Source: Leptolyngbya sp. O-77
GTDB taxonomy: Bacteria; Cyanobacteriota; Cyanobacteriia; Elainellales; Elainellaceae
NCBI RefSeq assembly: GCF_001548395.1
Contig: NZ_AP017367.1
Span: 4,859,775 to 4,891,774 of the forward strand
Length of the DNA stretch: 32,000 bases
Direction of reading: 5' to 3'
The translations under genes and the position numbers were made by a program. The number at the start of each line of letters is the position of its first letter. Within the stretch, counting starts at the first letter, position 1. Positions 3,537 through 31,077 of this stretch are shown here, one piece after another. The notes under the pieces were generated by a model that saw only the letters and a program-made list of their open reading frames with translations, did no database searches and was not told the origin of the DNA.

Positions 3537-3759
3537 GGGAAAAAAGCAGAAAGAAGAACGAAGAACGAAAAACGAAAAAAAACACCTATTTCTTCGTTCT
3601 TCCCTCTTCGTCCTTCTCTCTTCGTCCTTCCCTCTTCGTCCTTCCCTCTTCGTTCTTCCCTCTTCGTTCTTCGTCCTTCCCTCTTCGTTCTTCCCTCTTC
3701 GTTCTTCCCTCTTCCCTCTTCGTTCTTCCCTCTTCCCTCTTCGTTTTTCATTTTTTCTC
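3537..3759. repeat. Heptad polypurine/polypyrimidine array: a short GA arm (3537-3582), then about 24 heptads of TCTTCCC/TCTTCGT/CCTTCCC running to the GldG-like ATG
   Basis: The plus strand is almost pure C/T from 3589 to 3759. gaagaacgaagaa in the GA arm is the exact reverse complement of ttcttcgttcttc at the start of the CT arm. Confidence 0.9.
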
Positions 3760-5462: not shown

Positions 5463-6026
5463 ATGAAACTCAAGCCCGCTACTTTCTGGCTCCTCTTTGC
5501 CGCGCTGATCTTGGGCAGCGTCAGCCTGTGGTCGTTGCAGCAGCCTCCACGCACCGAAGAGGCAGGACAAACCACTCCGCAAAAGCTGTTTGCAATAGAG
5601 GAGAGCCAGATCCAGTCGCTGACGGTGAAAAAGCCGGATCAAACGCTGGTGTTTGAAAAAGACGAAAATGGCGTGTGGCAAATGAAGCAGCCCCAGCAAG
5701 GCGTGGCCAACGATGCCGCCGTTGCGTTTTTGGCGAACTTGCTGGCGACTGGGACGAGCGATCGCACTTTCTCGGTTCCCCCCGCTGACCTTGCCACCTA
5801 CGGACTCGACCAGCCCACCACCACCCTTGAATTCACCACCGCCGACGGCAAACCCCACACCCTCGCCCTCGGCAGCAAAAACTTTAACCAGAGCGCGATC
5901 TACGCCCTGATTGACGCACCGGAAAATCCGCAGAACCTCACCGTTTCTCTCGTCTCGCTCGATTTTGAAACCGCTACGGGGCGATCGCCCGATAGCTGGC
6001 TCCAGCCAGAAGCGGCAGGGGAGTGA
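5463..6026 (+). CDS. DUF4340-like protein (usual partner downstream of GldG-like genes)
   Basis: N-terminal signal-anchor, beta-rich body, and position directly after the GldG-like gene. Family assignment is from memory. Confidence 0.6.
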   Translation: MKLKPATFWLLFAALILGSVSLWSLQQPPRTEEAGQTTPQKLFAIEESQIQSLTVKKPDQTLVFEKDENGVWQMKQPQQGVANDAAVAFLANLLATGTSDRTFSVPPADLATYGLDQPTTTLEFTTADGKPHTLALGSKNFNQSAIYALIDAPENPQNLTVSLVSLDFETATGRSPDSWLQPEAAGE

Positions 6027-6150
6027 GGGAAGAGGGAAGAGAGAAGAGAGAAGAGAGAAGAGGGAAGAACGAAGAGGGAAGAACGAAGAGAGAACAGGTT
6101 TGGGAGATGCGTAAGAATTTTCGTTTTTCGTTCTTCGTTCTTCTTTTTTC
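6026..6150. repeat. Inverted copy of the heptad array: about 10 GA heptads (GGGAAGA/GAGAAGA/ACGAAGA), then a CT arm (6117-6150)
   Basis: Read directly. It lies between the convergent DUF4340 and yidD genes. The GA and CT arms can pair (gaagaacgaa / ttcgttcttc). Confidence 0.9.
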
Positions 6151-6393: not shown

Positions 6394-7053
6394 TCAAGCG
6401 GTAGGTTCGATGCCTATGGCCCGGAGCTGATCTGCCAGCAGGTCGGCGCGGTGCTGGGCTTGCAGGGCGACTTCTTCGGGCGTGGGCACGCGCTGCCCGT
6501 CGGGCTGAAAGTAGCGCAGGTTTCCGTCTTCTACGCCCAGATACAGGCTCAGGCTGTCGCTCCACAGCCACCCTGCCTCATTCGCGGCGATCGCCTCATA
6601 CACCTGGTTGACCAGCCGGAAGCCTTCTAGCTCCAGCGTGTCGGGCGAAAACCAAAAATATTCATGCGTCCGAAAGCGGTCTTGATATAGCTCCTTTTTC
6701 AGCGTCTGATCGACCTCAGCCGTGGACTCCGACAGCAGCTCGATAATCAGGTCGGGATATTTGCCGTCCTCTTCCCACACCACCCACGATTTGCGCGGGT
6801 GCTTCTGCGTCTTTTTGACCAGGAAAAAGTCGGGCCCGCGAAAGTCTCGATGCTTAAGCTGCTGACGGCTAAAGTAAATCGTCAAATTCGCGCCGATAAA
6901 GAAATCGGTGCGATCGCGCCACAGCCACTCCAAACACGCCACCAGCAGCGCCAACTGGGCATAGTGCAGCGAACTTTCCATTTCTGGCTCGTCGCTCTCG
7001 ATTTGGGTGGCATCTGGCATGAGGTCTGCCAACTGCTGCGCGGTGATGACCAT
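6394..7053 (-). CDS. Uma2 (DUF820) family putative endonuclease
   Basis: Motifs PDFFLV and PDLIIELLSEST fit the PD-(D/E)xK-like Uma2 core. I chose the start at MVITAQQ (ATG at 7053). Confidence 0.8.
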   Translation of the reverse strand: MVITAQQLADLMPDATQIESDEPEMESSLHYAQLALLVACLEWLWRDRTDFFIGANLTIYFSRQQLKHRDFRGPDFFLVKKTQKHPRKSWVVWEEDGKYPDLIIELLSESTAEVDQTLKKELYQDRFRTHEYFWFSPDTLELEGFRLVNQVYEAIAANEAGWLWSDSLSLYLGVEDGNLRYFQPDGQRVPTPEEVALQAQHRADLLADQLRAIGIEPTA

Positions 7054-7170
7054 CGGCGTGTGTCCAGATAGAACTGAAGGGGCGATTCGCGAAGCGTTCG
7101 CGCAAGCGGTGCGGCGCACTTTCCCTGCGAGAATCGCCCGCCTGTTTCCATCTTAGAGATTGGACGGGCG

Positions 7171-7274: not shown

Positions 7275-7760
7275 ATGCTAAGCAGCGGCAACTCGAATTT
7301 GAAGACTTACGATAGCTTACTGACGGCGATCGAATTTAGTGAAGGGCAACTGAGTCTTTTGCTGGCGGTGTGTGATGATCGGCAACGTCGAGCTGCTCTA
7401 ATTGCCAGCTGTGAACGCGACCTTGCGCCCCAGATTCGAGCCTATCGGCTGTCTCTAGACTGCTATGAACCGAGTTTGAAGGGTGCGATTTATCAAGTCT
7501 GGAAGCAAGATGATTACTTGCAACAGGGCGGACGTGCAGTGCTGACGCTGGAGATCACAGAACCGCTTTTAGAACAGAATCAGGAACAGGATGACACTGG
7601 GCGAGATAGGTTCTTTGGCTATTTGCAATGGACAAGAGAAGGGCTGCGAGAATTCCGTTTCCCGATTGTGATTTGGATGCCCTCGCTGTTTCTAGAAGTG
7701 CTGAGCCGTAGAGCGCCAGACTTTTGGAGCTGGCGTAAGGGTGTATTTCGATTTCTCTAA
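7275..7760 (+). CDS. Hypothetical 161-aa protein upstream of the NLR pair
   Basis: Clean ORF with an ATG start. Alternating hydrophobic strand-like segments (LLLAVCDD, AVLTLEI, FPIVIWMP). No catalytic motif recognised. Confidence 0.6.
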   Translation: MLSSGNSNLKTYDSLLTAIEFSEGQLSLLLAVCDDRQRRAALIASCERDLAPQIRAYRLSLDCYEPSLKGAIYQVWKQDDYLQQGGRAVLTLEITEPLLEQNQEQDDTGRDRFFGYLQWTREGLREFRFPIVIWMPSLFLEVLSRRAPDFWSWRKGVFRFL

Positions 7761-7829: not shown

Positions 7830-8285
7830 ATGGTTGACCCGGCAACGCTGACCGCAGGCGCGATCGCCACTCTTGCCTTCCAAAAGTTTATGGAAACGAG
7901 CGCGGGGAAACTGGCGGAAAAGTTTTCGGAAATGGCGATCGCCCGCATGGATGATCTCTTAAAGCGCATCTGGGCCAAGCTGCGCGGACGGCCGCGTGTG
8001 GAGGAGATCAAAGCCGCCGTCGAAAAGACCCACAAAATCACGGCAGAGCAGGTGAATCAAATCGCGGCCTATCTCCAGGTGGCGATGGACGAAGACCCGC
8101 AGTTTGCCAACGAGATTCGGCTTTTGGCCCAGGAAATCAACGCAGGCAAGCTGATCGACCAGAGCCACATGACGCAAAACATCATTGGCGACCATGCCAA
8201 AGGCTGGCAAACCAAAGTCGAAGGTGGCACGGCCTACATTGGCGACATCACCATTCACCAAACCCAACCGCCCGCAAGCTCCTGA
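7830..8285 (+). CDS. Small all-helical protein with a hydrophobic N-terminal helix and a C-terminal BASS-like motif (Bell/HeLo-like effector candidate)
   Basis: 151 aa. The N-terminus is MVDPATLTAGAIATLAFQKF. The C-terminal 29 aa (nt 8187-8273) match the N-terminus of the next gene. Confidence 0.7.
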   Translation: MVDPATLTAGAIATLAFQKFMETSAGKLAEKFSEMAIARMDDLLKRIWAKLRGRPRVEEIKAAVEKTHKITAEQVNQIAAYLQVAMDEDPQFANEIRLLAQEINAGKLIDQSHMTQNIIGDHAKGWQTKVEGGTAYIGDITIHQTQPPASS

Positions 8286-8298
8286 CGCAATCCTCCCC

Positions 8299-9738
8299 AT
8301 GAGCGACCAGCACATTCACGACCAGGGCAAGGGCTATCAGGTTGAAGTGAAAGGCGGCACAGCCTACATCGGCGACAACAAAATCTATCAACCGCTGCCA
8401 CCGCCCTCGCCTACCGGAATTCCTAGCAATCTGCCGCAGTATCCCAGTAAAACCTTTCGGGGGCGCGAGGACGACTGGGCCAAGCTGCACGACGCCTTGC
8501 AGCAGACGGAGCGAGTTGCGATCACTGCGCTGCACGGGATGGGCGGCGTGGGCAAAACGGAGCTGGCGCTGCAATATGCCACGGCAAAGCTGCGGGAGGG
8601 CGCGTATCCCGGTGGCGTGTGCTGGCTGGGGGCGCGAGAGCAAGAGATCGGCACGCAGATTACGCAATACTTTCAGGCGCAACTGGGATTGCAACTGCCG
8701 GAAGAGCTGGATGACCTGGCCGCGCAGGTGGGCTATTGCTGGCGGCACTGGCGCGAGGGCGAGGTGCTGGTGGTGGTGGACGACGTGGCCTATCAGCGGG
8801 TGGCGGAATACGAGAAAACGATCAAGCCCTACCTGCCCACCGACCCGCGCTTTCGGGTGGTGGTGACGACGCGCCAAGACCTGGGAGCCAGCTTTCGTCG
8901 GGTGCCGCTGGGCGTGCTGGCGGAAGGCGCGGCGCTGGACGTGCTGCGAGATTTGGCGGGAGCCAGCCGCATCGATAGCCAGATCGCTGACGCAAAGCGG
9001 CTCTGTGAATGGCTGGGCTATTTGCCGCTGGGGCTGGAGCTGGTGGGGCGATATTTGGCAAACAAGCCAGATTTGGCGCTGGCGGAACTGTTGCAGCGGC
9101 TGGATCGCCAAAAGCTGGCGGCGCGGGCGCTGAACAGACCAGAAGAGGTGATGACCGCCACCCACGAGAGCGTAGCCGCCGCCTTTGAACTAAGCTGGAA
9201 CGACCTGACGGCAGCGCAGCGGCAACTGGGAGAACGGCTGAGCCTGTTTGCGCTGGCCCCGATTCCCTGGGCACTGGTGGAAGCGATGCAGTCCGAAGCG
9301 GAGACCGAAGACCTGGAAGATGATTGCAGCACGCTGGTAAACCGCAACCTGCTGAACCGCGTGGGCGAGGGCAGCTACCAACTGCACAGCCTGATTCGCG
9401 AGTTTTTTGCGGCAAAGCGAGAGCAAGATGCTGATGCCAACACGCTGAAGCAAGCTCATTGCGCGGTGCTTGTGCAAATTGCCAAAGCGATTCCCTGGAC
9501 AGCCCCACAGGCAACCTATTTGGACGTTGCTCCGGTTGTGCCGCATCTGGTGGAAGTGGTGAATCACCACATGCAGGCGGTCAGCGATGAGGCGGTGCTT
9601 TCCCCTGCCAACGGGTTGGCAATGTTCTACTACGGACAGGGCTTGTATGCCGAAGGCGTGCGCTGGGCGGAGCAATGCAAGGAACAGGTGGAAAGCACGC
9701 CTGGGGCGCAGACCATCCCGACACGGCGAGTAGTTTGA
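8299..9738 (+). CDS. NB-ARC (STAND) NTPase module of an NLR-like protein; the reading frame breaks at about 9700 before the TPR array
   Basis: Walker A GMGGVGKT (8536-8559), Walker B VLVVVDDV, RVVVTTR, and the GLPLA-like LGYLPLGLELVG. The ATG at 8299 places the shared motif at aa 7-35. Confidence 0.85.
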   Translation: MSDQHIHDQGKGYQVEVKGGTAYIGDNKIYQPLPPPSPTGIPSNLPQYPSKTFRGREDDWAKLHDALQQTERVAITALHGMGGVGKTELALQYATAKLREGAYPGGVCWLGAREQEIGTQITQYFQAQLGLQLPEELDDLAAQVGYCWRHWREGEVLVVVDDVAYQRVAEYEKTIKPYLPTDPRFRVVVTTRQDLGASFRRVPLGVLAEGAALDVLRDLAGASRIDSQIADAKRLCEWLGYLPLGLELVGRYLANKPDLALAELLQRLDRQKLAARALNRPEEVMTATHESVAAAFELSWNDLTAAQRQLGERLSLFALAPIPWALVEAMQSEAETEDLEDDCSTLVNRNLLNRVGEGSYQLHSLIREFFAAKREQDADANTLKQAHCAVLVQIAKAIPWTAPQATYLDVAPVVPHLVEVVNHHMQAVSDEAVLSPANGLAMFYYGQGLYAEGVRWAEQCKEQVESTPGAQTIPTRRVV

Positions 9739-11624
9739 ACAATTTGGCGGGGTTGTATCACTCAATGGGACGCTACAGTGAGGCGGAACCGTTGTATCGG
9801 CGATCGCTCGCCATCCGCGAAGCGCAGCTCGGCGCAGACCATCCCGCCACGGCGAGTAGTTTGAACGCTTTGGCGGGGTTGTATTGCTCAATGGGTCGCT
9901 ACAGTGAGGCGGAACCGTTGTATCGGCGATCGCTCGCCATCTACGAAGCGCAGCTCGGCGCAGACCATCCCGCCACGGCGAGTAGTTTGAACAATTTGGC
10001 GGGGTTGTATTACTCAATGGGTCGCTACAGTGAGGCGGAACCGTTGTATCGGCGATCGCTCGCCATCCGCGAAGCGCAGCTCGGCGCAGACCATCCCGAC
10101 ACGGCGAGTAGTTTGAACAATTTGGCGGGGTTGTATCGCTCAATGGGACGCTACAGTGAGGCGGAACCGTTGTATGGGCGATCGCTCGCCATCCACGAAG
10201 CGCAGCTCGGCGCAGACCATCCCGACACGGCGATGAGTTTGCACAATTTGGCGGGGTTGTATTACTCAATGGGACGCTACAGTGAGGCGGAACCGTTGTT
10301 GGTGCGATCGCTCGCCATCCGCGAAGCGCAGCTCGGCGCAGACCATCCCGCCACGGCGAGTAGTTTGCACAATTTGGCGGGGTTGTATTACTCAATGGGA
10401 CGCTACAGTGAGGCGGAACCGTTGTTGGTGCGATCGCTCGCCATCCACGAAGCGCAGCTCGGCGCAGACCATCCCGCCACGGCGAGTAGTTTGAACAATT
10501 TGGCGGCGTTGTATGACTCAATGGGACGCTACGGTGAGGCGGAACCGTTGTTTCGGCGATCGCTCGCCATCCGCGAAGCGCAGCTCGGCGCAGACCATCC
10601 CGACACGGCGACGAGTTTGCACAATTTGGCGGCGTTGTATGAATCAATGGGACGCTACAGTGAGGCGGAACCGTTGTATCGGCGATCGCTCGCCATCCGC
10701 GAAGCGCAGCTCGGCGCAGACCATCCCGACACGGCGAGGAGTTTGAACAATTTGGCGGGGTTGTATGAATCAATGGGACGCTACAGTGAGGCGGAACCGT
10801 TGTATGGGCGATCGCTCGCCATCTGCGAAGCGCAGCTCGGCGCAGACCATCCCGACACGGCGAGGAGTTTGAACAATTTGGCGGGGTTGTATGAATCAAT
10901 GGGACGCTACAGTGAGGCGGAACCGTTGTATGGGCGATCGCTCGCCATCCGCGAAGCGCAGCTCGGCGCAGACCATCCCGACACGGCGAGTAGTTTGAAC
11001 AATTTGGCGGGGTTGTATCGCTCAATGGGACGCTACAGTGAGGCGGAACCGTTGTATGGGCGATCGCTCGCCATCCGCGAAGCGCAGCTCGGCGCAGACC
11101 ATCCCGACACGGCGAGTAGTTTGAACAATTTGGCGGCGTTGTATCGCTCAATGGGTCGCTACAGTGAGGCGGAACCGTTGTATGGGCGATCGCTCGCCAT
11201 CCACGAAGCGCAGCTCGGCGCAGACCATCCCGCCACGGCGAGTAGTTTGAACAATTTGGCGGGGTTGTATGAATCAATGGGTCGCTACAGTGAGGCGGAA
11301 CCGTTGTATGGGCGATCGCTCGCCATCTGCGAAGCGCAGCTCGGCGCAGACCATCCCGACACGGCGAGTAGTTTGAACAATTTGGCTCTGTTGTATTACT
11401 CAATGGGACGCTACAGTGAGGCGGAACCGTTGTATTTGAGGGCGCTGCCGATTTTATTCAGCCGCCTGGGGCAAGACCATCCCACCGCTCAAACGGTAAG
11501 GAAAAACTTTGAGGAGCTTGTAAAGTTAGCAGTGCAGGCGAGGCGGGCGGGCGAGTTGTCTGACCATCCGCTGACGCAGGCGCTGATTCAGCAGATTCCA
11601 GGCGGAGAAGAAATAGAGCGGTAG
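9675..11624 (+). CDS. TPR (TPR_10/12, kinesin-light-chain-like) sensor array. It is almost certainly the C-terminal continuation of 8299-9738 in another frame.
   Basis: 14 units of a 42-aa repeat (GADHPDTASSLNNLAGLYxSMGRYSEAEPLYxRSLAIxEAQL) plus a degenerate cap. Confidence 0.85.
   Translation: MQGTGGKHAWGADHPDTASSLNNLAGLYHSMGRYSEAEPLYRRSLAIREAQLGADHPATASSLNALAGLYCSMGRYSEAEPLYRRSLAIYEAQLGADHPATASSLNNLAGLYYSMGRYSEAEPLYRRSLAIREAQLGADHPDTASSLNNLAGLYRSMGRYSEAEPLYGRSLAIHEAQLGADHPDTAMSLHNLAGLYYSMGRYSEAEPLLVRSLAIREAQLGADHPATASSLHNLAGLYYSMGRYSEAEPLLVRSLAIHEAQLGADHPATASSLNNLAALYDSMGRYGEAEPLFRRSLAIREAQLGADHPDTATSLHNLAALYESMGRYSEAEPLYRRSLAIREAQLGADHPDTARSLNNLAGLYESMGRYSEAEPLYGRSLAICEAQLGADHPDTARSLNNLAGLYESMGRYSEAEPLYGRSLAIREAQLGADHPDTASSLNNLAGLYRSMGRYSEAEPLYGRSLAIREAQLGADHPDTASSLNNLAALYRSMGRYSEAEPLYGRSLAIHEAQLGADHPATASSLNNLAGLYESMGRYSEAEPLYGRSLAICEAQLGADHPDTASSLNNLALLYYSMGRYSEAEPLYLRALPILFSRLGQDHPTAQTVRKNFEELVKLAVQARRAGELSDHPLTQALIQQIPGGEEIER
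9705..11468 (+). repeat. 14 tandem 126-bp units (intragenic), near-identical at the nucleotide level
   Basis: Units start at 9705 + 126n. The units at 10083 and 10965 differ by 1 nt in the stretch I compared. Each unit contains a HIP1 site. Confidence 0.95.
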
Positions 11625-11639
11625 GGCGCAATTTTCCTG

Positions 11640-12011
11640 TTAGGCTTCTGAAGTCAACCCAGCCAGCACTCGATATTCCGGCGGGATAAGTCCTTGCACA
11701 ATATCCTGCTGCGGAATGCCCAACGTGATTAATTCCGCTTCAATTTCAACCTCAGTTTGATTGCGCTGAATCCAGACCTTTCCCTCGCGGATGTCCAGAT
11801 GCATCAACACCCAATACACCCGCTCTTGCCCGCGCCATCCCTGACTGAGGATTAAATAGCGATCGCGCTTCGGGTCAAAAATAGGCTGACTCTCAATCCC
11901 GCTGCCATCATCTTCGCTGCTTTGACTCAACAAAAACTGCATCACAATCTGACGATAGCGCTCAATCCCTGACAACCCATCTTGGGAAATATTCACCAGT
12001 TCTACAGCCAT
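11640..12011 (-). CDS. xisI: XisI family protein
   Basis: Has the XisI-like core YLILSQGWRGQERVY...GKVWIQRNQTEVEI. It overlaps the xisH stop by 10 nt. Confidence 0.85.
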   Translation of the reverse strand: MAVELVNISQDGLSGIERYRQIVMQFLLSQSSEDDGSGIESQPIFDPKRDRYLILSQGWRGQERVYWVLMHLDIREGKVWIQRNQTEVEIEAELITLGIPQQDIVQGLIPPEYRVLAGLTSEA

Positions 12012-12424
12012 TGCAAAACCTCCTGACGAATGGGGTCGTATACCATTAACGACAAACCATTTTCCTGAACGAGACGTTTTGGAAACGGACGTTGAAAAAA
12101 GTCAGCATACGCGGCAAGCGGAATCGCTAGGTAGAGCTGGCGATCGGGTTCCAACTCTGACAGCGCTAAACGATAGGCAATAAACTGTCCCAACGCAGCA
12201 TGGAGTTCATTGGTTGGCGAAGATGAAATAAAACTCTTCACTTCAACCGCAATTTTCTCCGTATCCCGCTCGGCAGCCAAAACTCCGTCAGCTAAGGCTT
12301 CAGCCCCAAAATCAACTTCTAGCTTCACGCCCCCGATTTCCAGCTTGAGCGGGTCATGGGTTATCTTCCAGCCTGCCTTGATCAAAGCAGCTTTGACTTG
12401 CGAGTAGAAGCGATCTCTAGCCAT
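12002..12424 (-). CDS. xisH: XisH family protein
   Basis: MARDRFYSQVKAALIKAGWKITHDP...KIAVEVKSF...ALGQFIAYR matches the XisH pattern. Start taken at 12424. Confidence 0.85.
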   Translation of the reverse strand: MARDRFYSQVKAALIKAGWKITHDPLKLEIGGVKLEVDFGAEALADGVLAAERDTEKIAVEVKSFISSSPTNELHAALGQFIAYRLALSELEPDRQLYLAIPLAAYADFFQRPFPKRLVQENGLSLMVYDPIRQEVLQWL

Positions 12425-12495
12425 GCCTCTGCGAGCTGATGCCACCCTTTCATCATAATTCTATGAGACAGGGGTATTACACGGTCGCGGTTAGG

Positions 12496-13083: not shown

Positions 13084-13303
13084 GGAATAACCGTCAATCA
13101 ATTTGCGTAAATGTCCGACAAAGCAGCGCGATCGCTATTTCTAGCTAATTACATTTCTAGCTAATTACATTTCATCAAAATAGAATCAAAGTTCAGATCT
13201 GCAAGGCTAACGCCAACGCCCCTGCGCCAAATTCCCTCATCTAGCGATCGCCTATACTGAAGGCACTGCTTTGGATGCGAACTCGTGACGGGGAGGGGGT
13301 TTG

Positions 13304-13891
13304 ATGGCGATCGCAACGCAAAAACTGACCTTTGAGGAGTACCTGACCTACAGCGATGGCACTGATACCCGCTATGAACTGGTCGATGGAGAACTGGTGC
13401 CCATGAGTCTGGGAACTGGCAAACATGGGGCAATCATCCGGTTTATTGTGCAGCAATTTGAAGGCGCACTGGCGCAATCCGGACAGCCCTGGGTGGCGTT
13501 GCCTGCTCTGGTGGGGGTTCGTTCTCCACGAGGGCGCAACTGGGACACGTCTCGCATTCCCGATGTCACAGTTTTAACGCTGGCTCAGTGGGAAGCGATG
13601 GGCGACCGCGAAGCGGTGATTAACCTAAATGAATCGCCTCCCCTTTTGGTGGTTGAGGTTGTCAGTCCCTCTACCAAAATGGATGACTACCGCTCGAAAC
13701 GGGCTGAGTATGGATTGCTAGACATCCCTGAATATTGGATCGTAGACCCGCTAGATGAAAAAGTTACGATCTGTCTTCTGGAGCATCATTTCTACGACGC
13801 GGCGGAATACCAAGGAAATGATTTGATTCAATCGCCTACCTTTCCAGAGCTTCGCCTCACTGCCGCTCAAATCCTTGCAGGCAAGCGGTAG
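13304..13891 (+). CDS. Uma2 (DUF820) family putative endonuclease
   Basis: YELVDGELVPM, IPDVTVL and LLVVEVVSPST are Uma2 motifs. The ATG at 13304 is preceded by GGAGGGGG. Confidence 0.8.
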   Translation: MAIATQKLTFEEYLTYSDGTDTRYELVDGELVPMSLGTGKHGAIIRFIVQQFEGALAQSGQPWVALPALVGVRSPRGRNWDTSRIPDVTVLTLAQWEAMGDREAVINLNESPPLLVVEVVSPSTKMDDYRSKRAEYGLLDIPEYWIVDPLDEKVTICLLEHHFYDAAEYQGNDLIQSPTFPELRLTAAQILAGKR

Positions 13892-16002: not shown

Positions 16003-16584
16003 ATGATGGCTCAAACTGAGACAAAACGCTATACCGCTGAAGAATATTTGGAACTTGAAGTTGCGTCGGAAACCCGCAACGAATATCGCGATGGAGAAAT
16101 TGTTCCTATGACGGGCGGCACCCCAAACCACAATGACATCGCAGGAAACTTATATATTCTGCTTAAATCTGCCCTTAAAGGAAAAGACCATCGGATCTTC
16201 TATGCTGATCAGCGGCTCTGGATTCCCGGCGCAAGTCTCTATACATATCCTGATGTGATGGTTTTGCCAAAGCCGCTAGAGTTGCAAGCTGGGCGAAAAG
16301 ACACGGTGATGAATCCCTGTTTTATTGCTGAGGTGTTGTCCAAATCAACCCGTAGCTATGACCGGAGTGATAAATTTGCAGCTTATCGCACCATCTCTAG
16401 CTTTCAGGAATACCTGCTCATTGATCAGGATAAAATCCACGTTGAGCATCATGTAAAAGTTGCGGAAAATCAATGGCTTTTTTCTGAATATAACGATCCA
16501 GAATTTAACCTTTCACTTCGCACATTAGATTTGCAAGTTCAGATTGCAGATCTCTACGAAAATATTGAGTTTTCTGAAAGTTAA
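16003..16584 (+). CDS. Uma2 (DUF820) family putative endonuclease (third paralogue; lower GC)
   Basis: YTAEEYLELE, EYRDGEIVPM, YPDVMVL and CFIAEVLSKST motifs. Confidence 0.8.
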   Translation: MMAQTETKRYTAEEYLELEVASETRNEYRDGEIVPMTGGTPNHNDIAGNLYILLKSALKGKDHRIFYADQRLWIPGASLYTYPDVMVLPKPLELQAGRKDTVMNPCFIAEVLSKSTRSYDRSDKFAAYRTISSFQEYLLIDQDKIHVEHHVKVAENQWLFSEYNDPEFNLSLRTLDLQVQIADLYENIEFSES

Positions 16585-19030: not shown

Positions 19031-19329
19031 TTCGGAGTGGCGACTCGTTCGTAGTGGCGACTTCAGTCGCCCGATTCAAGGCTTCGGAGTGGCGACTTCA
19101 GTCGCCCGATTCAAGGCTTCGTAGTGGCGACTTCAGTCGCCCGATTCAAGGCTTCGGAGTGGCGACTTCAGTCGCCCGATTCAAGGCTTCGGAGTGGCGA
19201 CTTCAGTCGCCCGATTCAAGGCTTCGGAGTGGCGACTTCAGTCGCCCGATTCAAGGCTTCGTAGTGGCGACTTCAGTCGCCCGATTCAAGGCTTTTCGGA
19301 GGCAGACTAAAGTCTGCACTACAAACTAG
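19031..19329. repeat. 35-bp tandem array (7 full units plus a degenerate leader). Each unit holds the hairpin GGCGAC-TTCA-GTCGCC. The array ends with a related hairpin, GCAGACT-AA-AGTCTGC.
   Basis: Hairpins start at 19056, 19091, 19126, 19161, 19196, 19231 and 19266, an exact 35-bp period. The only variation is G/T in cgGagt versus cgTagt. Confidence 0.95.
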
Positions 19330-26991: not shown

Positions 26992-27412
26992 CAGCCTGAT
27001 CCTCCCTGGCTCTCCATCTTCTGCAACCGCTCCTGTGCCCATTCTCGTAGTTGTTCATCGGGGTCATTGAGGGCGCGATCGCGCAGCAGCGCCGGAACTT
27101 TAGGATTGTTAGGATAATAAGTGGAGAGAGCCTGTAAAGCTAGTTGACGTGGGCTATCTACAGCACAACCTACTAAACTTCCCGCCGCATCCATAGAGTA
27201 AAAATTGTTTTCTACTGCAACTTCGCTCAGTGATGCAATTAAGCTTGGATGATCTTTCCAATTATCCACTAGTCCGAGTATCGCAGCCAAACACATTTCT
27301 TGTAGGACTGCCTCTTTTGCTGTATTCACAAGCCAATGATAAACCATTGTATCGCCTCGTCCTACATCAGCAATAAGGCGGACTATCTTAATACATTCCT
27401 TAACAAGGAATA

Positions 27413-28647
27413 CTTACATCTTGCACCAGTACAGATGAACGGCTTTTCGGCGGGTGCAATCAATGAGAGAAAAGGGCGTGAAGTCACAAACAACAAGAAC
27501 AGTGGAAACCATTCTTGGCACGCCCAAGCGTTAGTCTACACCCTGCTCAGCCTGATGCCGAGTGCCTACCAAAGAGACAGCCTGCAAGCGATGCTGGGGT
27601 TGTTCCTAGAAGCTCAAGGGCAACCCTCGCCGCAACACAGTTTGATTAAGTCGGGTAGTGCGTTGAGCCGATTTCTCAACGAGTATGCCTGGCCCACCCG
27701 CCAAGTCGTGCGCGTGGTGCGACGGCAGATCGTGCAGCAACTGTTGCAGTCTGCTCCAAAGGTCGCCGTCCCTGGTTGCAGGTGGTGGTGGATCTGACGA
27801 CGTTGGAGAAATGCGGCAAGTTCAAAGCGTTTGCATCGCTGATTCGTGTGCTGCAAGGCAAGCGAGGATTGCATCTGGTGGTGCTGTATCTGGTGGTTGG
27901 AGAGTGTCGAGTGCCCTGGAGTTTTCGGTCTGGCGTGGCAAACATCAGCGGACTGCGGTGCAGTTGGCGATTCGCTTAATAGGTAGCTTGCCCCCTGCGT
28001 TAACGAGCGCCTTCCGGGTGGTCATTCTGGCAGACACCGCCTTTGGCAGCGTGGCCTTCCTCAAAGCGATGCGAAAGCGCCGTTACTCGGTAATTGTCGG
28101 GGTGCGGTGTGACCGCAAACTGGCTGATGGTCGCTGTGTGAGCAAACTGGTGAAAAAAGGGCAACAGGTGGCTTAGAGGGACTGAACTTCCCGGTGACGA
28201 TTTCTTGGCTTTACCTCAAACGCGACGGCCAGTTGGAGAAACGCTTTGTCCTCTCGACTCGTCCCCTCAAAGGCAGCACCATCACTTGGTGGGGGCGCGT
28301 AGACGATGGAGCATTGAGGGATTTTTCAAAACCATCAAACATCGCTTTGGGTTGCATCGCTTTGCTCAGCAGACGCTCAAGGGCGTATATCGCTGGTTGA
28401 TGTTGTGTTTCCTCAGCTTTGTGCTGGTTCATTGGGTTACCGCGCAACTCACGCCAAAGCGACCCCTGATTGGAAAGTCGCTGCAACTGCTGCATTAGAC
28501 GCCTTGTTCCCGGAAGTCGCAGCTTGTTTAGCGCTGCTTCAAGTTGAGCGAGCGCGATCCCTGCTCGATTCACTCGGTATTGCGGTGCACTTTGTCCACC
28601 TCGCTGAGCTAAAAACGTAGGCTAAATGTACTGGTGCAAGATGTAAG
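27413..28647 (+). mobile_element. Degenerate IS4/IS701-like insertion sequence (1235 bp) with 21-bp perfect terminal inverted repeats and a 4-bp AATA target duplication
   Basis: The left end cttacatcttgcaccagtaca is the exact reverse complement of the right end tgtactggtgcaagatgtaag. AATA occurs at 27409-27412 and 28648-28651. The DDE-like pieces (VVVDLTTLEK, VVILADTAFGS, RWSIEGFFKTIK) lie in different frames. Confidence 0.8.
27435..28620 (+). pseudogene. DDE transposase remnant, at least 4 frame breaks or stops
   Basis: ORFs 27336-27797, 27776-27979, 27685-28176, 28205-28498 and 28405-28620 together tile one transposase. Confidence 0.7.
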
Positions 28648-31077
28648 AATATCAATTCAGGTTCACTAAGACCCAAAAGGCTCATCGCCAACAGAGATGA
28701 AAGAAATATTTCAAGCTTACTGATTAATAGCAGCGCGATGTGTCTAATTTCTTGATAACTGTCAACCTCTTGGAGAAATGTAGAAGTTAGACAAATATCA
28801 CCTCCTACGGATTTAAGAATGTGGTTATATAAAGTCAAAAGTCATCATCTTTATTCTTTAAATTATTGAATTCTACTTCATCTCCTAAAGATATATCCAT
28901 CAAAAATTCAACTAATTGACCTACAAATTTAGGAGAAATCATTCCACAAATCAATCTCAAAACTTCATGCCAGGTTTCATCTTGCCAGTGTTGCCCAAAT
29001 ACCTCATCTCGCAGTTGTTCAAAAGTGAGGGTATATTGTTTCTCAAAGCGATGAACAATTTCGACAGCACAGAAATATTCTAAAAAAGTACGATGTACAA
29101 AACCGTAGGTATCGGAACCGTAGTGGCAAATTGCAGAATCTCGTCTGTAAAGCTGATCAATCAGGAGCTTTGCAATACTTGGCGCATTTAGTGCTTCCAA
29201 AGTCAGTTTTTCAAAGTAGAGCTTTAAACAATTCTCCAAGTCCTCTCTTGAAATCAAATTTCCATTTAATCCGCTGCTACTTGCTTGCATGAAATAGGCA
29301 ACTTGCCGAAGCATCGCTTGCTTATCTCGATAATCAATTTCAACTGGATACTTCTCCCCAGCGAGGATCTTTTAGATCATGCTTTGCTTCATAATCCCCA
29401 CTTGTGCAACAGAAGTTTAGAAGCCCTCGTTGTAAGGTCAATCTTTATTTTGAGGTAAACCTTCTTCTTTCTCTTTATTCAGAGTTACCATCATTGTTAG
29501 CAACAGTGGATTGTCTGCTAAGTTGGCGATAGCTTTTGATTGGCGATCGCATCCTTCAATCGCTGTTTCAGTCGCGCTTTATCGGGGATCGCTGCTCATC
29601 GAGAGGTCATACCAGCGATCGATAAATTTGTGGATTTCGTTAGTATCAAGTGATTGAATGGTGAAGTGTCGGAACCCCGCTGTGCTGGAGGCGCTCGGGG
29701 ATTGTAACCAAATGATGCGAGACGTGACCAAAACCTGGGCTTTGGGATATTGCTGCGAAAAGCGAATGATGTCGTCGATGACGGTCGATTGAGTGGCGCG
29801 ATCGAATACCTCGTCCAGACCCGTCGAACATCACTAATGTGGGGAAATTCTAGCAAGTGCTGATGAAGCTGTTGCTGATCAAACTGCCAATCTACACCTC
29901 GACCGCGATGGAGAAATTCGAGAGAAAGTTTGCAGATGGATTGACAGCAAATTCTCTTAACTCAATTAGTAACGGAAGTTTCTCGTTTTTGCCCTCAACC
30001 CATTCCAGTGCCAGATATTGCAACAGACTTGACTTACCCGATCCCGGATCACCTAAAATCACCGCCCGCTGAGAGTCTGCTACTGCTTCTAGAATCTTTC
30101 GCGCAGGTTGCTGAAAGTATTCATGACGATAATGCTCCAGGGCTTTAGGCGATAAATTGGCTTCAAGTTGTCCTGCGGCTTGCAGTTGTCGTTTCAAATC
30201 CAAAGGTAGGTCATAGCGCGTTGGGGGCAAGGCTTCTCGTACCGTTTGCTCAATGAACATTGCCCAGAGCTTGATGGCATCAGCGCGATCGGTGCTGTCG
30301 AGGGTGTATAGCTTCAGAGAGCCATAGCTAGACTGCAAACTGTGACGATATTTTTCAACATCAAATCCAGGTGAAAGTTGTGCGGTATTACGAGCAATGT
30401 CTCCGAGTAGGTCAGAGTTCAAAATTTCCCGCAATTCTGCATTCGCCTTGATAATCCCTTTAACTTCATAGATATATTCTTTGCAGACACCGCGCCAATC
30501 AAATTCTTCTGTAGGAAATTGCCATCCGGAGACTTGATGCTGCTCTGTCCAAATTTTCTCTAGCTGTGCGTAGTCAATTTGTTTGCAATCCTTATCAAAG
30601 GCTTTTCCCAAAAGTGGGCGCACCGCCTCATCCTGCACAAACTTTTTGATCGCTGCGTGATAGTGATGCTGAATGCTAGTTTCGGGAACGTCGTTAATCT
30701 GAAGCTCTTTAATAAAGCGCTTAATAAAGTAGCCAACTGCTTCTGCCATTAGCGTTTTCAGTGCTGCGGCATTGAGGCGGCTGATTCCGCTACTCAGGCA
30801 ATCCTTAAAAAAATCTTGAACATATCCCTCTAGAACAGGCTTACTCAAATCGAGAACCTGTTCTAGCACTAGCTTTCCTAGCTCTATTCCTGTTGTAGCT
30901 GCCAACCAATCCAGCATACGGGGATTTCAGGGGTGACTAAGTAATACCTCTAATATTGCACTCATATTTGAGGAGGAACCAGAGATTACGAACTCAAACT
31001 ACAGCAGGCAATCTTGCATCACACCCTGAGCGCACTGAATAGGTTTTGTGTCTAAAATCGGCCATTCAAACCACCCA

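Follow-up and report, generated by a model that had tools for sequence, protein, structure and literature searches.

In the fungal pairs HET-S/NWD2 and HELLP/PNT1 (HRAM and PP motifs), two adjacent genes encode a NOD-like receptor (NLR) and a membrane-targeting effector of the HeLo or HeLo-like type, and the motif at the N terminus of the receptor templates the one at the C terminus of the effector. Bacteria have motifs of this kind as well, the bacterial amyloid signaling sequences (BASS): for BASS1 and BASS3, amyloid formation and templating have been shown by prion behavior in Podospora, fibrils, and solid-state nuclear magnetic resonance (Dyrka et al. 2020, 10.1101/2020.01.06.895854). For the BASS11 pair Bab/Agp of Escherichia coli ECOR25, amyloid signaling, membrane relocalization, and antiphage activity have been demonstrated, with fibrils, foci, and abortive infection against T5 (Ibarlosa et al. 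2024, 10.1101/2024.11.07.622273). Here we consider a Bell effector gene and the NLR gene next to it in Leptolyngbya (Thermoleptolyngbya) sp. O-77, whose products share a terminal motif of the BASS9 family. "The window" below means the whole 32,000-nucleotide (nt) stretch of the chromosome that was analyzed (contig NZ_AP017367.1, positions 4,859,775 to 4,891,774).

The Bell/NLR pair is already known as a BASS9 amyloid-signaling pair and is not new. For this locus we establish the gene order, the domains, the matched motif, its conservation and co-variation, the translation of the NLR head, and the published identity. Based on these observations, we think it probable that the locus is a two-gene Bell/BASS9-NLR module for regulated cell death.

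The pair, its motif, and its recurrence

Three proteins of the window are exact-sequence matches to BAU44502.1, BAU44503.1, and BAU44504.1, encoded on the 5.48-Mb chromosome of Leptolyngbya sp. O-77. The bass_09 entries (profile nlr_20) in Table S2 of Dyrka et al. 2020 include BAU44503.1 with 'QNIIGDHAKGWQTKVEGGTAYI' at residues 116-137 and, as its collinear partner in the same strain, BAU44504.1 with 'DQHIHDQGKGYQVEVKGGTAYI' at residues 3-24; the window proteins carry both strings at identical residue numbers. Because accessions, residues, and strings are the same, the window pair is a rediscovery of a catalogued BASS9 pair. A sequence-only reading of this DNA had proposed a Bell-type effector and an NLR joined by a BASS-type motif, and it was correct in both architecture and family assignment, since the pair is listed under bass_09 and the small protein stands in the Bell set of that table, which its authors gathered with HMMER and psi-blast. 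Its further suggestion, that the GGTAYIGD motif might be a new variant, has to be given up: the motif is catalogued BASS9, and BASS9 entries from Pseudanabaena, Calothrix, and Microcystis in Table S2 carry AKGWQTKVEGGTAYI. BASS hosts are expected to be filamentous or multicellular, and the hosts here (Leptolyngbya O-77, Thermoleptolyngbya, Leptodesmis, Nodosilinea, Nostoc, and others) agree with that expectation. The catalogue reportedly also has a J Mol Biol version.

The 151-amino-acid (aa) Bell protein ends in ...MTQNIIGDHAKGWQTKVEGGTAYIGDITIHQTQPPASS. When the 29-mers encoded at nt 8187-8273 and nt 8317-8403 are compared, 17 of the 29 positions are identical, GGTAYIGD included, as the earlier reading had seen; in 5000 shuffles of both termini, the best ungapped 29-mer reached at most 11 identities. 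The ungapped alignment in fact extends to 35 residues, from M114 of the Bell protein and from M1 of the NLR (sequences in Table 1). Nine of the 17 identical residues are encoded by different codons, so the match does not stem from a recent DNA duplication, and the identity is maintained at the protein level rather than at the DNA level. The NLR gene opens, on the same strand and in the +1 frame relative to the Bell gene, with an ATG at 8299, which confirms the 13-nt distance from the TGA ending at 8285. Is this NLR head really translated? Against an orthologue with 85% identity (locus L001), the first 45 codons show 13 synonymous-only differences and 4 nonsynonymous ones, and L001 has no start codon upstream of the head. 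The head is thus translated, which places the start upstream of 8403, and it is under purifying selection at the protein level. A TTG at 8185, listed by the ORF (open reading frame) finder, was rejected as the NLR start: an ORF from there would overlap the Bell gene out of frame, and L001 lacks the codon.

The effector corresponds closely to the published description of Bell proteins, which are ~120-140 aa long, with a ~100-aa helical domain and an N-terminal hydrophobic helix bearing an acidic residue at position 2 or 3 (Dyrka et al. 2020). In the 151-aa protein, residue 3 is an aspartate, the helical domain spans ~100 aa, its first helix is hydrophobic, and the tail is disordered; the sequence begins M-V-D3-P-A-T-LTAGAIATLAFQKF, of which LTAGAIATLAFQKF is the hydrophobic helix. 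The AlphaFold2 (AF2) model contains seven helices (residues 9-16, 18-21, 25-31, 34-50, 55-67, 72-88, and 90-105), in line with the earlier description of a helical protein with a hydrophobic N-terminal helix. The predicted local distance difference test (pLDDT) score is ~78-87 over residues 31-100; the tail from residue 110 is predicted to be disordered in the monomer, with a pLDDT of ~40 over the motif. Nearly all of the 454 homologues are ~147 aa long, come from filamentous cyanobacteria, and are 65-95% identical; their consensus starts MxDPVTLTASAIATLAFQKF and ends AKGWQTKVEGGTAYIGEIHI, and the motif core AKGWQTKVEGGTAYIG is almost invariant across the family. Pfam holds no model for Bell and gave nothing above threshold for this protein. 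Sub-threshold Pfam matches to PF11836 GTA-gp10 (22.8 bits, where 27.8 would have been required) and to T6_Ig_like were judged compositional, and ubiquitin, matched weakly and repeatedly by the family profile in the PDB sequence search (per-domain E ~700), was rejected. Neither Pfam, nor the PDB sequence search, nor Foldseek against PDB yielded a confident noneffector fold for the small protein, an outcome that would have counted against the sequence-only reading.

How general is the pairing? One genome per GTDB species was scanned, giving 72 loci that encode Bell relatives, and six frames of each locus's flanks were searched with the Bell tail of that same locus. In 32 loci the top tail match lies on the same strand and at most 300 nt downstream of the Bell gene; inspection identified further paired loci (L003, L020, L027, L033, L043, L053, L068, and L069). 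The pair recurs, then, in more than 30 loci of different genera, and all 28 downstream partners scanned (the window NLR and 27 others) are STAND NTPases, 23 with NB-ARC and 5 with NACHT, 16 of them having tetratricopeptide repeats (TPRs) in the same ORF. The tails and heads also co-vary: among 24 dereplicated pairs the tail/head score is 67 for cognate versus 48 for noncognate combinations (permutation p=5e-5). The motif is thus kept as a matched pair in orthologous loci, and its two copies change together.

The co-variation comes mostly through matched subtypes. The bulk of the cognate signal is due to ...NVQAKAEQGGKQWIAEKQYF with ...VNAQANDGGKQWIAQEQHF and YGGTNYQTKTGVDNTNFF with YGGTNYQIQTGENNTNVF; matched subtypes seen on both partners include ...GGKQWIAEKQYF with ...GGKQWIAQEQHF, and GGTNYQTKTG..NTNFF with GGTNYQIQTG..NTNVF. 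In the clade of the window, an extension IGD-I-x-I-x(4)-PP on both partners (IGDITIHQTQPP / IGDITINEPLPP) adds to the signal, and in the main AKGWQTKVEGGTAYIG class the cognate partner is frequently not the top-scoring one. The position of the NLR copy varies as well. In most relatives (L004-L017, L039-L041, L056, L057, and others), the NLR ORF starts just past the Bell stop and has a ~50-aa helical leader (e.g., MSDPIAQLCQIIVETLRDNP...) ahead of the motif; the Microcystis NLR motif, at residues 51-73 in Table S2 of Dyrka et al. 2020, likewise lies behind a leader.

The receptor was described earlier as an NB-ARC/TPR NTPase, and both domains are indeed present; as assembled, they lie in separate frames. 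Pfam NB-ARC is matched with E=9e-14 at residues 57-300 (nt 8467-9198). The TPRs form a tandem array at 9705-11435, in which a 126-nt unit recurs 13.7 times, 95% identical in nucleotide sequence and with no indels (Tandem Repeats Finder); such high internal repeat conservation is known from rapidly diversifying NLR sensors. Between the two regions, and relative to both L001 and a second close orthologue, L002, the O-77 sequence is longer by one A, in the run at 9692-9694, and by one G, in the run at 9703-9706, whereas L001 and L002 read through the site uninterrupted (...QVEARLGPDHPDT...). Because of this frame change the NB-ARC ORF ends at 9738. NB-ARC and TPR constitute one polypeptide only if the two extra bases are errors; the break reflects either an error in sequencing the homopolymers or a genuine inactivating mutation. 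Among other contigs, the only ones carrying the exact Bell protein are 1.3-1.5 kb long and end before 9692-9706.

Table 1. Features of the Bell/BASS9-NLR locus in window coordinates, with examples of the cassette in coordinates of the related loci
Feature	Position (nt)	Strand	Identity or basis
ORF BAU44502.1, 161 aa, 70 nt upstream of Bell gene	7275..7760	+	
Bell effector gene (151 aa)	7830..8285	+	ORF; BAU44503.1 ('hypothetical protein', Leptolyngbya sp. O-77)
Bell helical domain, residues 1-110	7830..8159	+	AF2 helices, family consensus, acidic position 3
Effector-side BASS9 motif, residues 114-148	8169..8273	+	MTQNIIGDHAKGWQTKVEGGTAYIGDITIHQTQPP
Intergenic spacer, 13 nt, no hairpin	8286..8298	+	Bell stop (TGA) to NLR ATG
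NLR-side BASS9 motif, residues 1-35	8299..8403	+	MSDQHIHDQGKGYQVEVKGGTAYIGDNKIYQPLPP
NB-ARC ORF as assembled (479 aa)	8299..9738	+	BAU44504.1, annotated 479 aa in GenBank
Frame-change site between NB-ARC and TPR	9692..9706	+	blastn versus L001 and L002; three-frame translation
TPR sensor region, 649-aa ORF in other frame	9675..11624	+	Pfam TPR_12 E=2e-253, TPR_10 E=1.8e-196
Stop codon-pseudoknot cassette, examples (outside the window)	L064:5436-5487, L049:5403-5454, L059:5409-5460, L038:5412-5463, L042:5445-5496		

Proposed mechanism and rival explanations

In total, the observations above are consistent with a model in which the NB-ARC/TPR receptor would sense a cue via its TPR array and oligomerize via its NB-ARC domain. 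Oligomerization would bring the N-terminal BASS9 segments together, allowing them to adopt a cross-beta fold that could then template the same motif on the C terminus of the abundant Bell protein. We posit that the converted Bell protein would free its N-terminal hydrophobic helix, leading to membrane attack and cell death; the outcome may be abortive infection or altruistic death inside the filament. In this model, amyloid formation and templating are proposed for this pair by analogy with BASS1, BASS3, and BASS11, membrane targeting by analogy with Bab, and a role in defense by analogy with Bab/Agp.

Several points weigh against this model. A literature search found no fibril or prion experiment on BASS9, which is also the BASS family least well modeled in the grammar study (average precision 0.42-0.63). 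Foldseek of the AF2 model of the Bell protein against PDB gave a best E=0.9 and no resembling solved structure; having no PDB sequence or Foldseek relative, the protein has neither a rival fold nor a structural confirmation of a HeLo- or Bab-like pore-former fold, a helical bundle in which the other helices cup helix 1 and whose structural conservation is, per the original authors, very low. No defense model of PADLOC-DB v2 matches the Bell or the NB-ARC protein, the sole match at the locus being to a generic TPR model. Two proteins of ~960 aa (P0161 and P0169) are Bell-BASS9-NB-ARC-TPR in uninterrupted single polypeptides, which means that the motif is not confined to trans-acting pairs and is also an internal linker, an arrangement that simple trans-templating does not require. 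Finally, in the O-77 assembly the two inserted bases sever the NLR from its TPR sensor; should both bases be genuine, strain O-77 may carry an inactive module.

That last point leads directly to the first rival explanation: is the module decaying or inactive in O-77, with a truly frameshifted NLR that has left a sensorless NB-ARC protein, a TPR fragment, and a motif pair that is a relic? The extra bases are absent from both close orthologues, the GenBank entry BAU44504.1 itself is 479 aa, in keeping with the end at 9738, truncated partners also occur in the related loci L003, L021, and L034, and the second NLR-like gene of the window (NNH2-NACHT, 30917-29892) is fragmented too. Set against this, both insertions fall in homopolymer runs (AAA and GGGG) 11 nt apart, the usual picture when sequencing or assembly has gone wrong; the TPR frame stays intact over 649 codons with repeats that are still 95% identical, and neither the Bell gene nor the NLR head is damaged, both being conserved. 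We regard decay as unlikely on this balance, though it deserves to be taken seriously; since it concerns activity in O-77, it is compatible with the amyloid-signaling model for the family.

Could the shared peptide instead be a nonamyloid docking or regulatory segment, such as a beta-strand tether or an autoinhibitory tail, that binds stoichiometrically and does not drive templated polymerization? The silence of the literature on BASS9 experiments favors this view, as does the internal position of the motif, which lies between Bell and NB-ARC in P0161 and P0169 and before other domains in P0143 and P0177, where Bell-BASS9 is fused to other C-terminal modules (with a TIR-like end in P0143). The effector-side motif is also far more conserved than the NLR-side copy, which would be expected if it had an added intramolecular role. 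The length, the G/N/Q-rich composition, the position, and the gene arrangement of the motif, however, are those of BASS motifs that form prion-like amyloids, and the ArchCandy scores of BASS families are comparable to those of validated fungal motifs (Dyrka et al. 2020). A docking segment therefore seems to us improbable. Locus L036 is grouped with the single-polypeptide and other-module fusions. Last, a chance match or a trivial local duplication, conceivable for short, low-complexity, G-rich peptides, is to our minds already refuted by the 17 identities against at most 11 in shuffles, by the differing codons, and by the recurrence of the pair across genera.

What, then, does the window contribute? 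Its value is confirmatory, in that a published BASS9 Bell/NLR pair was recovered independently from sequence alone, and it offers a reasonable place to ask, in a cyanobacterium, whether BASS9 does form signaling amyloids. Cloning from the O-77 reference needs care, given that the NLR is broken between NB-ARC and TPR. The more consequential by-product lies outside the window, in its sister loci.

A stop codon-pseudoknot cassette in related loci

In 23 of the GTDB loci, and in 28 metagenome matches (26 of them distinct; metagenome loci L074-L108), the Bell gene ends in a different arrangement, which we call the cassette and treat as a lead, a candidate mechanism and not a feature of the window. 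These 23 loci have no second motif copy (tail-scan scores of 25-44 in the 19 scanned), the exceptions being L032, in which the next gene bears the motif, and L004, in which the element comes after a further Bell-like ORF, at 9168. The Bell stop codon is TGA in 19 loci, TAG in 3, and TAA in 1, with C as the next base in 19/23. It shares its frame with a long ORF, which extends over 100 codons or more, or up to the contig edge, in 21/23 and leads directly to FVGR...GMGGxGKTE. This downstream region, an NB-ARC-TPR, a kinase, or another P-loop domain that goes on for hundreds of codons, lacks a start codon and a motif copy; among 18 loci scanned, its domain is NB-ARC in 13 and AAA_16 in 3, and it is a protein kinase in Fischerella PCC 9431 (L059). 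Xenococcus PCC 7305 (L064) is another example of a cassette host.

Exactly 8 nt past the stop codon begins a 5-bp stem, with compensatory pairs (GTCCG/CGGAC, GCCTG/CAGGC, GCCCG/CGGGC, GTCAG/CTGAC, and GTCGG/CCGAC), whose 8-9-nt loop (GGGA, GGGG, CCGG, CGGC, or GCGA) complements a segment 9-11 nt downstream (TCCC, CCCC, CCGG, GCCG, or TCGC) that is preceded by an A-rich AAAGTTAAA. In an alignment of 20 sequences, pairing is found in 86.7% of cells versus 75.9% in shuffles, and two-sided changes occur in 16 cells, values reached in 0/500 shuffles in each case; sliding the partners lowers pairing to at most 48%. Judged from this covariation, the stop-proximal element is best described as a compact H-type pseudoknot. 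Rfam returned no family for the window and none for the pseudoknot loci.

Metagenome contigs were searched with a pattern that held the stem-loop only, the stop and the spacer being excluded. A stop codon nevertheless lies exactly 8 nt upstream in 28 of the 36 matches, the other 8 being unrelated GC-rich sequences, and 26 of the 28 remain open in frame into NB-ARC. The complete upstream ORFs encode 133-177 aa, mostly start with MEPLT, MEPVT, MEPFT, or MEPLS, and belong to at least two Bell subfamilies with differing C-terminal tails; from the stop to NB-ARC there is no ATG, GTG, or TTG in 17 of the 26 distinct matches. With 44 pseudoknot examples as its basis, a covariance model found 23 sites in the 72 GTDB loci, all on the Bell strand and at the Bell stop codon, and gave no match in the window (best 6.6 bits, E=4.5).

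We speculate that the cassette directs programmed stop-codon readthrough, such that one gene would yield the Bell-motif effector in abundance and, more rarely, a Bell-motif-NLR fusion, and would be interchangeable with the two-gene BASS9 pair as a means of giving receptor and effector one amyloid motif; we judge the case for and against to be evenly balanced. The main rival is termination-reinitiation, which would produce an NLR without the motif and without the effector and for that reason fits the biology less well. Selenocysteine or pyrrolysine was rejected as an explanation for the in-frame stops because TGA, TAG, and TAA all occur, and pseudogenes or assembly errors were rejected because the arrangement recurs, with conserved spacing, in the 23 GTDB loci and 28 metagenome matches, isolate genomes included. 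A literature search turned up nothing that describes the cassette or connects readthrough with Bell or NLR genes. If readthrough is true, the cassette would be one of the rare cases of a cellular bacterial gene whose stop codon is recoded with the help of a structured RNA, and a new way to wire an immune receptor to its executioner.

Surroundings and comparison with known systems

The surroundings of the pair in the window are rich in accessory genes and are not a recognized defense island. Directly upstream, the ORF of BAU44502.1 has no Pfam or PADLOC match; it was considered as a third component and set aside, being conserved only in the nearest relative, L002, and it is probably not part of the module. 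A XisI/XisH gene pair and three genes of the Uma2 family (putative restriction endonucleases) flank the Bell and NLR genes (11640-12445, minus strand; 6394-7119, minus strand; 13301-13891, plus strand; 16003-16584, plus strand). The second NLR-like gene lies at 28835-30917 on the minus strand (seen together with 27336-28498, plus strand): its ORF at 30917-29892 contains Pfam NNH2 and the start of NACHT and ends just past the P-loop, the remainder of NACHT is in a separate ORF (29314-28835, minus strand), and transposase-like ORFs adjoin it. This gene appears to be fragmented.

Two kinds of repeat were also seen. At 19048-19294, between a recQ-like gene and a Band 7 gene, a 35-nt unit with a palindrome GGCGACTTCAGTCGCC occurs in 7.1 head-to-tail copies that are 98% identical; the array has no spacers and is therefore not a clustered regularly interspaced short palindromic repeat (CRISPR) array. 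Short intergenic tandem repeats, pyrimidine rich and purine rich, occupy 3591-3749 and 6025-6098 (14/21-nt TCTTCGTTCTTCCC units, and GAGGGAA repeated 10.6 times) and yield long spurious ORFs on both strands.

How does the locus compare with what has been described? With respect to the BASS9 pairs of Dyrka et al. 2020 there is no difference in kind. In the clade of the window the motif is extended to 35 residues and the NLR copy sits at the extreme N terminus, whereas most NLR copies among the relatives lie behind the ~50-aa leader, and in the window's assembly the NLR is frame broken. In Bab/Agp, likewise, the effector is a small helical protein of the Bell type whose hydrophobic N-terminal helix is conserved and whose C-terminal amyloid motif recurs at the N terminus of the adjoining sensor. 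The differences are that its motif belongs to BASS11 rather than BASS9, that the Bab domain is shorter (~80 aa) than the window's Bell domain, and that Bab has no detectable sequence or Foldseek similarity to the window's Bell protein. At the N terminus, a 'MEPIS' region is common to Bab, Bell, Hell, and several antiphage NLRs (Ibarlosa et al. 2024), and the Bell protein of the window agrees with it. The motif-sharing logic is also that of the fungal pairs HET-S/NWD2 and HELLP/PNT1 and of the mammalian RHIM, although these are eukaryotic and their motif sequences are unrelated; HET-s, moreover, has two pseudorepeats, whereas the window effector has one motif copy.

The cassette finds its closest parallels in viruses. 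In the gag-pol readthrough signal of Moloney murine leukemia virus, 8 nt separate the stop codon from a compact H-type pseudoknot whose third loop is A rich, and the cassette has the same predicted geometry around its in-frame stop; the classical leaky context is UGA-CUA. Gammaretroviral gag-pol and the UGA readthrough of the phage Q-beta coat gene each give two products with a common N terminus, as the cassette would. Unlike those viral systems, the cassette belongs to cellular genes of cyanobacteria and occurs with each of the three stop codons, UGA-C being the most frequent; it is a candidate only.

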